Assembly (NCBI GenBank): GCA_965249725.1
Contig: CBDFMQ010000002.1
Coordinates: forward strand, 2,880,001 to 2,944,000
Direction: 5' to 3'
Origin: Longimicrobiales bacterium
GTDB lineage: Bacteria; Gemmatimonadota; Gemmatimonadetes; Longimicrobiales; Gaopeijiaceae
Length of the DNA: 64,000 nucleotides
This document shows, in pieces, positions 41,060-50,329 of this stretch. Positions within the stretch are counted from its first letter, which is position 1. The number at the start of each line of letters is the position of its first letter. The notes below the pieces were generated by a model that had not been told where the DNA came from, did no database searches, and saw only the letters and a list, made by a program, of their open reading frames with translations. The position numbers and the translations under genes are program-made.

Positions 41060-41360
41060 TTGATTCCCACGGCCGGGCCGAATCGGGCCGACCGTCCAGC
41101 GTTCGGATCGGACCAGAAGTTAGACGGGTGTATGGGCCATGAGGTTGCGACGCACGTGTGGATGGTGCTCCGGTGAAGTGGAGCGGTGGTTCTCCGATCG
41201 GACAGAATCGCACCTCGGCGACGCAGGGGAAGCCTCGCGGTTGACAGGCAATATTTGCCCATTCATTGTTAATTTCCCTCCAGCCGTACCATGGTGGCCG
41301 GTTTGGTCCAGGTGGTACGCCCTTGTCCTGAAAATACGGATGATCAGGTGGAATCTCTCG

Positions 41361-42743
41361 ATGTTGTCTGAGCTAACGCCCTACAGCCACGATCCCGTGC
41401 GAGGTCGGTTGGCGCCCAAGTTGGCGCGCCTCATGGAGGCGGCCGGCGCCGATCACTGTACTCTGGTCTGGCGCGACGCTGCACACCCGACGGAGTTCCA
41501 CCCCTACCTCACACTTGGGGTCGGTGGAGCCGCGAAGCTAAGGGATCTTCCGCTCGAGCTGGAGCAGACCGCGCGGCGGGAGAGCGTCACGGGGCGACTC
41601 CGAAGCGGCCAGACCCGAGCCAACAAGTGTGCGGGCATGTTCGTGGCCGAGCACGGCGACAGATCGTGGCTGCTGGTCCTCCAATCCCGTGATCGGCTCG
41701 GCGTCGGCCGTGAAGTCGGACGCGAGGTGGAGGTCGCGCTCTGGGGTGCGATCTGGGCGGTGACGCGTCCGCGTCACCTGGAGCCGACGGGCCGCCTGGA
41801 TGCCAGGGACCTACTCAGCGAGGCCGAGGCGGCGGAAGACGAATCGGCGTTCGAAGATGCTCTGAGTCGGTACGATCGGGCCCACGAGGTCTCGCTCGCC
41901 ACCGGAGACTCGGAAGGCGTGATCCTCTCCTCGTGGTATAAGGGACGAGCGCTCCGGAAGCTCGCCCGGTGGGACGAGGCGATGTCCTGGTATACCCGAG
42001 CGCGTGAAATGGCGATCGGAGCGGGCAATCCGGGCCTGGTCGCGTCGGCGACGGTCGGTCTGGCCAACGTGCGCCTCCACAAGGGTGCTCTCGCCGAGGC
42101 GAGGGATCTATATCAAGAGGCTGTGCGAGTTGGGCAGGAGGCGGGCAACGAGCAGGCAGTAGCTCAGGGGTACTTCGGTCTGATGTGGGTGCACGGGGAG
42201 GAGCAAGACTGGCCGTCCGCCACACGAGTCGGATGGCAGGCCTACACCGCCGCCCGCGGACTCCCGGACGAGTGGGACATACTGGTGGCGCTCGGAGGCT
42301 GCTTTCGAATGTCGGGCCGGATGGATGAAGCCAGGTCCTGCAATCTAGTGGCGATGCATGCCGCGCCAATGCCCGAGACGCGCCAGCTCGCCACCTGTAA
42401 TCTGGCCGTGATCTCGGCGCTAGAGGGTGACGAGCAGTCGTACGAAGGCTTCAGTGCACAGATCGACGCAGACAAGATGTCTGCGAGGGGAAGAGTCGAG
42501 GTCCTCATGGAACGCGGCCAGGCGCTTTGCGCTCTCGGCCGGGATGACGAGGGTCGTCAGGCACTCAGGACTGCACTTCGCCAGGCCGAGGACCTGAAAT
42601 TCGGCAAGCTCGTCTTCGATATCGAGTGCTCTCTCGAGCTGGATAGCCCGTGGGAGCCCCTTGTGGGTCCGAATCCCACTCTCCGAGATGCCGAAGATGT
42701 CGAGATCCGGACCCAGCTGGAGTTGATGGCCTCCGAGGTCTAG
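41361..42743 (+). CDS. Cytoplasmic TPR-repeat protein with possible degenerate GAF-like N-terminal domain
   Basis: AGGTGG before ATG 41361 (start uncertain); about 6 TPR-like helix pairs (KGRALRKLARWDEAMSWY; GLANVRLHKGALAEARDLYQEA; RGQALCALGRDDEGRQAL). Confidence 0.85.
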   Translation: MLSELTPYSHDPVRGRLAPKLARLMEAAGADHCTLVWRDAAHPTEFHPYLTLGVGGAAKLRDLPLELEQTARRESVTGRLRSGQTRANKCAGMFVAEHGDRSWLLVLQSRDRLGVGREVGREVEVALWGAIWAVTRPRHLEPTGRLDARDLLSEAEAAEDESAFEDALSRYDRAHEVSLATGDSEGVILSSWYKGRALRKLARWDEAMSWYTRAREMAIGAGNPGLVASATVGLANVRLHKGALAEARDLYQEAVRVGQEAGNEQAVAQGYFGLMWVHGEEQDWPSATRVGWQAYTAARGLPDEWDILVALGGCFRMSGRMDEARSCNLVAMHAAPMPETRQLATCNLAVISALEGDEQSYEGFSAQIDADKMSARGRVEVLMERGQALCALGRDDEGRQALRTALRQAEDLKFGKLVFDIECSLELDSPWEPLVGPNPTLRDAEDVEIRTQLELMASEV

Positions 42744-42750
42744 TCAGTCC

Positions 42751-42888
42751 CTAGGGGCAAGTCCAACCGTTCGGCGTCGGCCAGGGGGGATCACACTCCC
42801 ACGCGGGGTCGACAGGTGTGGTGTTGCACGCGGTCGTCGACAGGCCAGCAACAACCAGGAACATCAGTACGGCGATCAGCTTCTTCAT
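42751..42888 (-). CDS. 45-aa exported peptide precursor with lipoprotein-like signal; not in the ORF track
   Basis: AGGAGG 6 nt before ATG 42888; MKKLIAVLMFLVVAGLSTTACNTTPVDPAWECDPPWPTPNGWTCP*. Confidence 0.82.
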   Translation of the reverse strand: MKKLIAVLMFLVVAGLSTTACNTTPVDPAWECDPPWPTPNGWTCP

Positions 42889-43005
42889 CCTGTGCCTCCT
42901 CGAACACGAGGTGAACGGCCGTCATGGTGAGTCCACCACGGCCAGGCACAAGATGGAGCTATTAAAACACAATAAACAGGATATATTGCAGGTTTTTAGC
43001 TTGAG

Positions 43006-43632
43006 CTAACTATCTGGCGTATCTTGCCGAGCCAACTCCACGAGCGGATCTATGCTCAATCCCAGATCCGCGAGGGTCACGGGGTCCGCCGATTCCGCGT
43101 CGTACCCCGCGGCTCGTTTGTAGGCGAGCCACGCGATCTCGTCGTCGTACCGCATCAGTCCCAAGGATCTGAGGGCACAGGCCGCGTCGTCCGTAATGGC
43201 GATCCACCCCTGGTGTGGGTAGTCCACGGTGAAGGCCGAATCCTGCCGCCACTCCTCGGCGAAGGAGATGAGTCCTTCGCTCAGGGGCGGTAGCTCCCCG
43301 GCTTCCGTCGCAGCCGCGGTTCGCCTCTGTTCATGCAGCCTGAGGAATCGCTCAATCTTGGCGCGGGACGCCGAGTTGGGGCCTCTTTGAGGCCATTGCC
43401 CCTGTCGGTATTGGCGGACGGTCTCGTGGTTGAGCTCGCAGAGTCGCTCCACCTCCAGGTCACTGTAGTCGGCGATGGCCCCGAGGAATCGTCGCCGCAG
43501 AGACTCCGGGTCATGGGGTGTACCAGGTGAGGCCTGAATGGACTCATCACCTAACACAATCTGCCGAATGGCGGTGAGCTTGCGCTCCGCCTCAGTCTCC
43601 GATCGTCGAGCACCGTTCGCGTCATCGCTCAT
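43006..43632 (-). CDS. Putative XRE/phage-repressor-like HTH protein
   Basis: AGAGG RBS; YSDLEVERLCELNHETVRQYRQGQ...PNSASRAKIERFL fits XRE helices 2-5; C-terminal domain unrecognised. Confidence 0.6.
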   Translation of the reverse strand: MSDDANGARRSETEAERKLTAIRQIVLGDESIQASPGTPHDPESLRRRFLGAIADYSDLEVERLCELNHETVRQYRQGQWPQRGPNSASRAKIERFLRLHEQRRTAAATEAGELPPLSEGLISFAEEWRQDSAFTVDYPHQGWIAITDDAACALRSLGLMRYDDEIAWLAYKRAAGYDAESADPVTLADLGLSIDPLVELARQDTPDS

Positions 43633-43834
43633 GAGTGCCTCTCATCTCAGATCACGGGGCCTAGTGGGCCCCATTGTGCACAAGCGGGGGCGGCAGGATC
43701 GTGGCCGCGTGACCCTGCAGGTCAATCTATACCCAAGGCCCTCTTATTTGCACAATAATTGCATGGAACGCACCGACCACGTAACCTGGAGAATGGCCCC
43801 CGTGCCAACGAGGCGTAGGTCCAGGAGCGATGCG

Positions 43835-44251
43835 ATGGACGACAAGACGACGATTCTGGTGATCGAAGACAACAAGGATCACCAGCATCTGATCAAGCTG
43901 GTCCTGGCGAAGGGGCTGCCTCTCGCCCGCGTCGATTGCACCACCGGGGGTGAGGATGCACAGAGCTATCTGCTCGAGCGGGACCCGCCATCGCTGATCG
44001 TCCTCGACCACTGGCTGCCCGGGATGAGCGGCATCGATCTTCTCAAGTGGCTCGCCTCCCAAGAGCAACTGGCGGACATTCCAGTCATCATGTTCACGAG
44101 TTCCCAAGACGCCAGACACGCCCAGCAAGCCTATGCGCTGGGCGTGCGCCGGTACCTCGTGAAGCCCAATGACTTCAAGGAACTGGTCGGCGAGATCAAG
44201 GACACGCTGGACCATTGGGTCGACCCCGAGGTCGGCTCCGCCGAAGCGTAG
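43835..44251 (+). CDS. Single-domain response regulator (CheY-like receiver)
   Basis: AGGAG RBS; ILVIEDN, IVLDHWLPGMSG, IPVIMFTSS, YLVKP. Confidence 0.92.
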   Translation: MDDKTTILVIEDNKDHQHLIKLVLAKGLPLARVDCTTGGEDAQSYLLERDPPSLIVLDHWLPGMSGIDLLKWLASQEQLADIPVIMFTSSQDARHAQQAYALGVRRYLVKPNDFKELVGEIKDTLDHWVDPEVGSAEA

Positions 44252-48779: not shown

Positions 48780-49829
48780 ATGATGCTCGATCATCCGCGG
48801 ATCCTGTCATTAGCCACCGCCCACCCCTCTCACGTTCTCGATCAAGGGCAGGTGGCACAGGCCGCGGGAGGGCTCTTCTCCAACGATTTTTCTGACTTCA
48901 GCCGTCTGGCACCCATCTTCGAGCATGCCGGCATCGAGACACGCCATTCCTGTGTGCCGCTCGAGTGGTACCTCGAACCGCACGACTTCGCCGAGAGGAA
49001 CCGGATCTACCTCGAGAATGCCGTCGATCTCCTGGAGCGGGTCACCGTGGACTGCCTGGGTGAAGCAGGACTGGACGCCACCGAGATCGACATGATTGTC
49101 ACCGTGTCCAGCTCGGGCATCGCAACGCCAAGCCTGGACGCACTCCTCATGGCCCGGATGCCCTTTCGGCGAGATATCGGCCGCCTACCGATCTTCGGCC
49201 TCGGCTGCGCAGGCGGCGTCTTGGGGATGTCCAGGGCCGCGGCACTCTCACAGGCCAATCCCGGATCCCGCATCCTGTTCCTGGTGGTGGAGCTGTGCGG
49301 CCTCACCTTCCGCCATGGCGACCGCTCCAAGAGCAATGTCGTGGCGACGTCGCTCTTCGGTGACGGAGCTGGGGGAGCCATCCTCTCGAGTGAGGGCGAT
49401 GGACCTGCCATGACGGGTTGGGGCGAGCACTGCTTTCCCGAATCGTTGGACGTGATGGGTTGGGACGTGAGCAACGACGGGCTGTCGGTGCTGTTCTCAC
49501 GGCACATCCCGACCATCGTTCGAGACGAGATGGGGCCCGTCGCGCGCGCCTTTCTCGAGAGCCACGGTCTCGCCCTCGAGGACGTTTCCAGGTTCGTCTG
49601 TCACCCGGGCGGCGCGAAGGTCATCGACGCGCTCGAAGAGATCTTCGAATTACACGAAGGCGGGCTCACCGACAGCCGGGCGGTTCTGCGCGATCACGGC
49701 AACATGTCGGCCGCCACGGTCATGTTCGTGCTCGAGCACGCGCTGAACGATGGGGCCCGGGGACACCTTCTGCTGTCTTCTCTGGGCCCTGGCTTCACGG
49801 CCGCATTCGCGCTCGTTGATGCTCCCTGA
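48780..49829 (+). CDS. Type III polyketide synthase (BpsA/SrsA-like)
   Basis: Cys-His-Asn triad motifs GLGCAGG, HPGG, GNMS; LFGDG; GPGF. Confidence 0.93.
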   Translation: MMLDHPRILSLATAHPSHVLDQGQVAQAAGGLFSNDFSDFSRLAPIFEHAGIETRHSCVPLEWYLEPHDFAERNRIYLENAVDLLERVTVDCLGEAGLDATEIDMIVTVSSSGIATPSLDALLMARMPFRRDIGRLPIFGLGCAGGVLGMSRAAALSQANPGSRILFLVVELCGLTFRHGDRSKSNVVATSLFGDGAGGAILSSEGDGPAMTGWGEHCFPESLDVMGWDVSNDGLSVLFSRHIPTIVRDEMGPVARAFLESHGLALEDVSRFVCHPGGAKVIDALEEIFELHEGGLTDSRAVLRDHGNMSAATVMFVLEHALNDGARGHLLLSSLGPGFTAAFALVDAP

Positions 49830-49831
49830 CC

Positions 49832-50329
49832 GTGGGCGTCGTTGAATGGACCGTTGCGGTCGTAGGACTCCAACGCCTGGCCGAGCTGGGTTGGTCGCGG
49901 AGTAACGAGCAGGCACTCTTCGCCCGTGGTGCGGTCGAGGTCGGTGCCCGGCACTACCCATTCATTGTCCTACTCCACACGGGGTGGCTGCTCGCCATCC
50001 TCGGGTTCGCTCCGAGGAGCGGGGTGCACACCACATTGCTCGCCGCGTTCGTGGTCCTCCAGGTGCTGCGTCTGTGGATCATCACCACGCTGGGACCGTA
50101 TTGGACGACGCGGGTGCTCACGGTGGCCGATGCCCCTCGGGTACGCCGCGGACCCTACCGATGGCTCGATCATCCCAACTACTGGGTCGTAGTGGGCGAG
50201 ATCGCGCTGCTGCCGGCCGCCTTCGGCGCCTACACCATCGCCGTCGTCTTTTCGGTGCTGAACGCCATCCTGCTCCTACATCGCATTCGAGTAGAGGAGA
50301 AGGCACTGGAAGAGCGCCGGGAGGAGTAG
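49832..50329 (+). CDS. ICMT-family methyltransferase (BpsB/SrsB-like)
   Basis: QRLAEL...GAVEVGARHY...LGPYWTTRV...GPYRWLDHPNY...RIRVEE. Confidence 0.9.
   Translation: MGVVEWTVAVVGLQRLAELGWSRSNEQALFARGAVEVGARHYPFIVLLHTGWLLAILGFAPRSGVHTTLLAAFVVLQVLRLWIITTLGPYWTTRVLTVADAPRVRRGPYRWLDHPNYWVVVGEIALLPAAFGAYTIAVVFSVLNAILLLHRIRVEEKALEERREE

Follow-up and report, generated by a model that had tools for sequence, protein, structure and literature searches.

A linked TPR receptor candidate, micro-lipoprotein and putative regulator in Gemmatimonadota: an apparently undescribed architecture for proposed peptide signalling

Peptide signalling through cytoplasmic receptors built of tetratricopeptide repeats (TPRs) has been described for Bacillota (Firmicutes) and their mobile elements (PMC9765709, PMC10075063), and the systems concerned are grouped as RRNPP or RRNPPA. 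The five-point signature given for them in PMC10075063 includes a small pro-peptide, a Sec-type signal, a TPR receptor of 250–500 amino acids (aa) and genes that are direct neighbours. A relevant variant is found on pLS20, a plasmid of Bacillus subtilis, where Rap(pLS20), a TPR protein, acts as the anti-repressor for a separate repressor (PMC7430634). Here, we analyse a three-gene cassette from a Longimicrobiales bacterium, in which genes for a TPR protein, a micro-lipoprotein and a putative regulator lie side by side. The cassette occupies part of a window of 64,000 nucleotides, by which we mean the whole stretch that was analysed (GCA_965249725.1, contig CBDFMQ010000002.1, positions 2,880,001–2,944,000). 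It is a real and conserved feature with the architecture of a peptide–TPR signalling system in a diderm phylum, and is apparently undescribed in print. No account of such a system in Gemmatimonadota was found in the literature searched, which lay mostly outside subscription journals and outside the supplementary tables of the RRNPP surveys. The locus itself is, by its sequence, the rarer of the forms described below, with a predicted GAF–TPR receptor, a putative regulator of the tandem helix-turn-helix (HTH) type and a defined candidate operator.

The open reading frames (ORFs) of the window place the receptor candidate on the plus strand, the peptide gene on the minus strand, a co-oriented regulator gene upstream of the peptide and a divergent receiver gene on the plus strand (Table 1). 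The layout is as first described: the ~460-aa TPR protein and the small gene are convergent, with 7 bp between their stops at 42743 and 42751, and the intergenic DNA is AT-rich (39–48% GC, against 63–65% in the genes). Contigs of four studies span the locus with 1–4 substitutions per long contig, and one does so in a single piece. The closest titled loci are Longimicrobiales metagenome-assembled genomes at 52–66% identity; together with genes for LolA and SusC/RagA, these support the suggestion of a diderm, Gemmatimonadota-like host.

Linkage between receptor and peptide was assessed across relatives (loci numbered L001 onwards). A locus was scored as positive if a convergent ORF of 30–110 aa, with a lipobox and a hydrophobic core, had its stop between −45 and +200 of the receptor stop. 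This pattern was shaped after examples had been viewed and was then applied identically to all loci and to the genome of the window. Convergent small lipobox genes are present at 60 of 63 scorable loci among the top family matches, and thus the adjacent small exported ORF whose absence from TPR homologues had been named as grounds for abandoning the original prediction is in fact their usual companion. The background in this genome is low: 7 of 2,354 long ORFs are positive and two of these are family members, leaving 5 of 2,352.

The linkage extends over several receptor types. Window-type receptors (~460 aa) are positive at 16 of the 18 loci with enough flank, and both misses carry a transposase gene at the receptor 3′ end (L003 by Pfam and L050 by eye). 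An intermediate locus, L006, is positive (1/1) with two tandem peptide genes. Longer receptors of ~600 aa, in which an insert separates the GAF and TPR parts, score 18 of 19 when counted with two related loci of the order; the sole miss, L011, retains the signal and lipobox and has a stop codon ahead of the repeats. Receptors of ~430 aa that lack the N-terminal domain, from two other families of the class, are positive at all 25 loci. The count omits seven loci whose contigs end 0–108 bases past the stop (L033, L034, L036, L043, L021, L031 and L069), two weak partial matches (L051 and L052), two duplicates (L055 and L053), the window itself (L005) and L076, from an unpublished genome. More broadly, 201 genomes of the phylum were sampled and 102 of them match the receptor family, a tally that includes the unpublished genome G210, which enters no other result, and from which the best 30 loci were inspected. 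The window type is rare within this family. A complete HTH partner of this type was detected in 3 of 151 family genomes, and two same-genus genomes that were searched (about 90% complete) yielded only the 600-aa receptor type.

The 45-aa product of the small gene is, by sequence pattern, a lipoprotein of the Sec/signal peptidase II (SPII) type. A Lys-Lys pair is followed by a hydrophobic stretch and the lipobox Cys21, leaving a mature part of 25 residues; the basic N-terminus, hydrophobic core and lipobox are the features by which export was recognised. The strong ribosome-binding site of the original prediction is borne out as GGAGG, and the signal peptide is borne out by pattern. Differences from the L001 gene over the first 27 codons (nine synonymous and eight non-synonymous, mostly at third positions) are consistent with a real peptide gene. 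Peptides of relatives are 38–87 aa long, and the lipobox is kept in 60 of the 60 peptides found. Averaged over 16 window-type peptides, identity is 59% for the signal, 29% for the tether and 44% for the ring region, which includes the invariant Pro39 and Asn40. Exactly two mature cysteines flank this core in 14 of the 16, and the remaining two (L038 and L046) have no mature cysteines and repeat the core in tandem. Tails of the 600-aa subfamily are mostly tandem repeats of 6–7 residues in one to eight copies, and those of the class-level (~430-aa) subfamily are short cysteine loops or Asn-ending tails. Tail type follows receptor subfamily, a grouping that is not separated from shared descent.

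The receptor start was set at ATG 41361 by agreement with P0001 and homologue N-termini. The protein has no visible signal peptide, its N-terminus folding within an alpha/beta domain, and at 460 aa it falls within the RRNPP range of 250–500 aa. TPR_12 (E 3e-16), TPR_2 and TPR_16 exceed the Pfam cut-off, and the structure model (pLDDT 87) consists of the alpha/beta domain followed by TPR helix pairs. In a fold comparison the repeat part matched LGN (Z 22.5, rmsd 4.6 over 286 aligned residues) and Pins (21.7) best, then Rap of pLS20 (Z 19.8, rmsd 5.9 over 277), Rap of phi105 (19.8), domain III of MalT (19.7), RapH (19.7), RapI (19.5) and NprR (17.9); LGN complexes also rank first in Foldseek. 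These neighbours, the Raps and NprR among them, are TPR proteins with a groove for peptides. The near-invariant Asn236 and Asn347 sit on the first helix of their respective TPR pairs in the model, and we infer that they have a role in the groove.

The suggestion that the N-terminus is possibly GAF-like was a fair one. Folded alone (pLDDT 79), the N-terminal domain is predicted to form a four-stranded sheet between helices, a fold that is neither an HTH nor a Rap-type helical bundle. Its matches include the roadblock protein MglB (Z 8.9 and 8.7), a phytochrome GAF region (8.4) and many GAF domains (7–8.4), so that GAF and roadblock are effectively tied within the profilin-like folds of the comparison. 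Pfam GAF has no match in this domain. At 50% identity the domain family falls into 134 clusters, of which 41 exceed 500 aa and 35 span 141–200 aa. One stand-alone homologue is encoded in the same genome (G000:C1:372287-373012, E 4e-17), convergent with a PspA-like and an ECF-sigma-like ORF, both names having been read by eye.

The gene beyond the peptide has held up as a partner of the cassette. Among the 17 window-type loci whose flank extends for 400 bases or more, 15 have a homologue of the 208-aa regulator, the two misses being the same two loci that carry insertions; as first described, the regulator gene is co-oriented with the peptide gene and lies upstream of it. Its description as XRE-like fits the relatives better than the window copy. 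Relatives of ~290 aa have an N-terminal XRE-like HTH_31 domain (E 6e-5 to 4e-4, below the cut-off) and then a better-conserved second part, and the window copy lacks their first ~80 residues and with them the XRE domain. Searches of Pfam, NCBIfam and PHROG at E≤1 or 0.1 returned no family for the 208-aa protein. Its retained part is similar to HTH clusters (0.88–0.89), which makes its HTH assignment a lead only. We considered an assembly artefact as the source of the short gene and rejected it, as the short form occurs in contigs of four studies and P0114, 82% identical, starts at the same place. The short form is therefore a lineage trait.

Other receptor types have a different partner in the corresponding position. 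An AraC-type gene lies beyond the peptide at 14 of 16 checked 600-aa loci (L007–L018, L024 and L030); of the exceptions, L020 carries a transposase-type ORF at that position and L023 stops short of it. At L019 and L022 the AraC-type gene is upstream of the receptor. HTH_18 is found in 23 of 23 downstream ORFs submitted from class-level loci. In one lineage (L061, L073 and L080) a Fis-type HTH gene precedes the receptor gene, with a receiver-like part in L061.

A candidate operator may link the regulator to the receptor promoter. The tandem CAA-N3-TTG palindromes overlap the candidate promoter spacer of the receptor gene, and equivalents lie 78–117 bp upstream of the receptor start in 11 of 11 relative window-type loci whose sequence covers this region. 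A matrix trained on nine of these relatives, with two near-duplicates unused and the window left out, scores the site at 26.7 bits, and it is the only position of at least 13 bits in the 4.16-Mb genome; two shuffled genomes had 13 and 6 positions at this level, the highest scoring 18.3. The operator follows TTGACA, which suggests repression of the receptor promoter. A sigma-70 consensus scan scored no full promoter. As the site persists in the window although the XRE domain is gone, the regulator's second domain would be the likelier reader. The copy between the HTH and receiver genes scores second best in the window and is one of 11 genome positions of at least 10 bits. Its equivalent in L001 reaches 22.3 bits, and L001 was the only relative in which a second copy upstream of the HTH gene was found. 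The AT-rich block upstream of the peptide gene is similarly distinctive, with the best genome score (33.1) at the locus, 22.9 at the next unrelated site and a shuffle maximum of 25.2. A repeat search returned nothing beyond chance-like pairs and missed the tandem palindromes. Operator-like sites are also present in two AraC-clade loci (L066:201, 21.3 bits, and L058:2850, 14.2 bits).

Table 1. Coordinates of the cassette and its neighbouring features in the window
Feature	Position	Strand	Remarks
TTGACA hexamer, candidate −35 of receptor promoter	41241..41246	+	read by eye; same hexamer in the same place in L033
Candidate operator	41248..41269	.	two tandem CAA-N3-TTG palindromes, 11-bp period; ~110 bp upstream of receptor start
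TPR receptor candidate, 460 aa	41361..42743	+	~7 helix pairs (residues 148–412), capping helix, C-terminal helix; no HTH
Receptor N-terminal domain, residues ~1–140	41361..41780	+	predicted GAF/roadblock (profilin-like) alpha/beta fold
Lipoprotein pro-peptide gene, 45 aa	42751..42888	-	signal 1–20, lipobox Cys21, short tether, Cys32–Cys44 loop with Pro39-Asn40
Cys32–Cys44 loop, candidate mature signal	42757..42795	-	cysteine pair around core in 14/16 window-type peptides
Peptide-gene ribosome-binding site	42895..42901	-	GGAGG, 6 nt ahead of ATG; kept in 16/16 aligned upstream regions
Conserved AT-rich block upstream of peptide gene	42952..43001	-	candidate promoter or second operator
Regulator gene, 208 aa	43006..43632	-	short form of ~290-aa family; keeps HTH-like second domain and C-terminal domain
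Weaker second operator copy	43741..43762	.	12.3 bits; between divergent HTH and receiver genes
Stand-alone receiver protein	43835..44251	+	Response_reg E 5.5e-21; lineage neighbour, not a conserved cassette part

The same genome holds a second cassette (L030, G000:C3:496477-499472). Its receptor (G000:C3:496477-498300) is a 607-aa paralogue, outside the RRNPP size range, with a TPR part 26% identical to that of the window. Its stop overlaps the stop of a convergent gene for a 79-aa lipoprotein that ends in a seven-residue unit repeated six times in tandem, the pair spanning G000:C3:496477-498536; divergent from the peptide gene lies an AraC-type (HTH_18) gene. The tails of the two cassettes share no common motif, as expected if they serve two separate channels in one genome.

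We think these features are best accommodated, with a probability just on the favourable side of even, by a three-gene peptide-controlled switch that works like Rap–Phr–Rco, using a lipid-anchored pro-peptide in a diderm host. The lipopeptide would be acylated and exported, and its C-terminal core (disulfide-closed, or repeated in relatives) would be cut from the tether by envelope peptidases. The released core would leave the cell or travel on membranes, and the short peptide would re-enter through TonB-dependent and Opp/Dpp-type transporters and bind the cytoplasmic TPR superhelix in its concave groove. Because the receptor has no DNA-binding domain, it would bind the linked regulator and act through it (here the HTH protein, and in other subfamilies the AraC-type protein), and the peptide would switch this contact in one sense or the other. 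The likely operator of the regulator would control the receptor promoter, and the GAF-like domain could provide a second input or a dimer surface. Since the likely operator overlaps the receptor promoter and the weaker copy precedes the regulator's own gene, the circuit would feed back on itself.

Families of import machinery are encoded in the genome, with four SBP_bac_5 matches, five SusC/RagA matches over the cut-off and LolA, although their presence does not show that they are used for the peptide. Transporters of the TonB-dependent and solute-binding types can carry peptides, and myxobacterial lipoprotein cargo enters neighbouring cells. At two relative loci an SBP_bac_5 (oligopeptide-type) gene is directly upstream of the receptor (L058:3-1268 and L063:2857-4155), and at four others (L057, L060, L070 and L072) a polysaccharide deacetylase gene occupies the upstream position.

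A number of observations weigh against this proposal. The 60 positive loci are not independent events because the loci are top matches that include close kin (the L037 and L039 peptides are identical), and six weak family-f2 matches (E 1e-9 to 1e-15) have no convergent peptide (0/6). The fold comparison identifies the receptor as a long-helix TPR protein and goes no further, because the eukaryotic LGN and Pins are the best neighbours and MalT scores level with Rap. The best 60 of 131 PDB sequence matches include no RRNPP receptor, and the receptor matched no RRNPP-receptor model in NCBIfam. No protease or transporter gene is conserved in the cassette, and the lipid anchor of every peptide found argues against free diffusion. 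Finally, L006 and 2 of 46 non-window-type loci likewise reach operator-matrix scores of at least 13 bits, and a genome scan with both DNA motifs found no credible target outside the cassette.

A first alternative is that the same receptor and ligand work within a single cell, the lipopeptide reporting on the cell's own envelope as a timer or a gauge of envelope stress and carrying no message to neighbours. The tail would then meet the TPR protein when lipoprotein export stalls and the precursor stays in the cytoplasm, or when periplasmic proteolysis frees it. We regard this as unlikely, although it is the alternative that survives best. The lipobox in all 60 peptides would hold each peptide on its producer, both DNA motifs point at the cassette alone, and the cassette is usually a single chromosomal copy. 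Tails specific to a lineage would be superfluous in a self-monitor, yet they vary from one subfamily to another and are unlike in the two cassettes of this genome. Disulfide closure, moreover, implies that an oxidising compartment has been passed, and the variation in repeat number from one to eight copies is as in amplified pheromones.

A second alternative is that the lipoprotein is the output rather than the signal: an envelope effector, for instance entericidin-like, a phage-exclusion factor or a kin tag, whose gene the regulator controls, with the TPR protein sensing something else, perhaps through its GAF-like domain. The promoter-like block conserved ahead of the peptide gene would suit such a role, as would a cytoplasmic receptor paired with an exported product. 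The entericidin B match in NCBIfam (E 0.044) that points the same way is weak, however, scoring 13.5 bits where the cut-off is 94, and is confined to the signal peptide (residues 2–24). No effector fold is evident in mature parts of 20–60 residues made up of low-complexity repeats or small loops, the ~430-aa class-level receptors keep the peptide despite lacking the GAF-like domain, and PADLOC returns generic TPR matches only (E about 1e-3). We consider an effector role quite improbable.

Still less probable is a ligand derived from the cleaved signal peptide rather than the tail. Pheromones of Enterococcus faecalis are derived from lipoprotein signal peptides (PMC4173765), the signal is the best-conserved stretch of the window-type peptides (59%), and no outer membrane would have to be crossed. 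This would leave unexplained, however, the invariant Pro39-Asn40, the paired cysteines and the exact tail repeats of two subfamilies.

A Rap-like phosphatase action on the adjacent stand-alone receiver, as raised in the original prediction, seems very improbable despite that gene's adjacency here and in L001 (66% identical), the weak second operator in the shared divergent spacer and RapH–Spo0F among the fold neighbours. Of seven relative loci with flanks of 1 kb or more, just one has an adjacent orthologue, in one genome of the same genus a similar receiver lies far from any cassette of this kind, and the N-terminal domain is predicted to be alpha/beta rather than a Rap-type helical bundle. 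On the same linkage count we rejected the receiver as a core part of the cassette; the receiver at L038 is only 38% identical and on the other strand.

Returning to the peptide-controlled switch, we can consider a wider version of it, to which we give rather less credence than to its converse. Gemmatimonadota might share a phylum-wide peptide language, independent of RRNPP or anciently related to it. Its pheromone would be a micro-lipoprotein on the outer membrane, contact- or vesicle-borne and either disulfide-protected or repeat-amplified, and it would be read by a cytoplasmic TPR protein that switches an interchangeable AraC-type or tandem-HTH regulator. Two orthogonal channels would be possible per genome, and such a language would amount to peptide communication through a cytoplasmic receptor in a diderm phylum.

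Several loci have lost an intact peptide gene or partner. Insertion sequences interrupt L003 (6437-7400), L050 (313-800) and L020, where the insertion lies between the peptide and the expected AraC gene. In these three loci and in the stop-bearing L011 the receptor looks intact or nearly so, an arrangement reminiscent, by analogy, of peptide-less ‘eavesdropper’ receptors. The peptide genes of the intermediate cassette (L006:494-836) are near-identical, and on another contig of that genome a LanC-like cyclase gene (L092:1022-2266, Pfam E 1e-29) is divergent from an HTH homologue. At the window locus itself, three of four runs carry C>A at 43006, which removes the stop codon of the HTH gene, and three of four lack 4 bases at 42974 in the block upstream of the peptide; strains therefore differ in the HTH C-terminus and in the peptide spacer.

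The surroundings of the cassette vary. It is usually a single chromosomal copy; its neighbours are parA and mnmG in L001, and in both L002 and L004 it adjoins a MobA-like gene. In a same-genus genome (L091, G002:C7:120004-125597) a molybdopterin oxidoreductase gene and other unrelated genes lie between the same two flanking genes, an ABC permease and an M28 peptidase, as flank the window cassette, and the site is therefore variable. We rejected a mobile-element or defence-island context, as no integrase, phage or conjugation genes were seen among the flanking ORFs read and the PADLOC matches were the generic ones noted above. Elsewhere in the window (48780-50329) a type III polyketide synthase gene is followed by an ICMT-family methyltransferase gene, a pairing familiar from alkylresorcinol pathways, and elsewhere in the genome 19 co-oriented tRNA genes lie within 2.8 kb (G000:C3:1903222-1906030).

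With receptor matches in about half of the genomes sampled, the receptor–lipoprotein pair would carry Bacillota-type logic across an outer membrane, and it would raise the question of the route by which a lipid-anchored peptide reaches the cytoplasm. The system is tractable without culture of the host, given a 13-residue loop as candidate ligand, a soluble receptor and a candidate operator, and the second cassette of the genome offers a natural non-cognate control. Should the two prove orthogonal, such pairs would be useful as parts for engineered signalling in Gram-negative hosts.

How close, then, does the cassette come to the known systems? Judged by the RRNPP signature, three of the five points are found outright: a small pro-peptide (10–100 aa), the receptor length and adjacency. 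For the others, TPRs are present and form a putative peptide-binding groove, and export is seen by pattern. Of the original proposal of an RRNPP-analogous module, the linkage, the HTH partner and the GAF/roadblock-type fold stand and the receiver as target does not. We therefore say that the cassette would work like Rap–Phr and do not assign it to RRNPP, because the host group and the N-terminal effector do not correspond and homology is inconclusive. The lipobox, which had been listed as a departure from canonical RRNPP loci, is less foreign than it seemed: 211 of 2,734 RRNPPA propeptides are predicted SPII substrates, a minority type beside the 92% processed by signal peptidase I (PMC9765709). 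Tandem pheromone repeats are likewise a known feature of Rap propeptides (PMC11343458).

Like Rap–Phr, NprR–NprX, PlcR–PapR and AimR–AimP, the cassette combines a small pro-peptide and a TPR receptor in neighbouring genes. It differs from these RRNPP(A) systems in the lipobox of every peptide found, in having a separate HTH or AraC-type protein as effector, and in its host, Gemmatimonadota rather than Bacillota or their mobile elements. LGN/Pins and MalT domain III are best or tied in fold, as long-helix TPR arrays, and LGN has been solved with extended peptides. The former are eukaryotic polarity adaptors, however, and MalT is part of a STAND ATPase; neither has a linked pro-peptide gene. With the E. 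faecalis sex pheromones and their PrgX-type receptors the cassette shares a signal carried in a lipoprotein precursor and a cytoplasmic TPR-type receptor, but in that case an ordinary, unlinked lipoprotein supplies its signal peptide as the pheromone (PMC4173765), whereas here a dedicated, linked micro-lipoprotein has its conserved or repeated part in the C-terminal tail.

The genes of rap–phr pairs are co-oriented, whereas receptor and peptide genes are convergent in the cassette described here. This is one of several differences from Rap(pLS20)–Phr*pLS20–Rco(pLS20), along with a diderm host, a chromosomal location with no conjugation genes seen, a lipoprotein pro-peptide with a disulfide loop or repeats, a GAF/roadblock-like N-terminal domain and a lack of detectable sequence homology. 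Nevertheless, both consist of a TPR receptor without a DNA-binding domain, an adjacent small pro-peptide and a separate DNA-binding regulator, the export of the pro-peptide and the function of the regulator being predictions in the present case.

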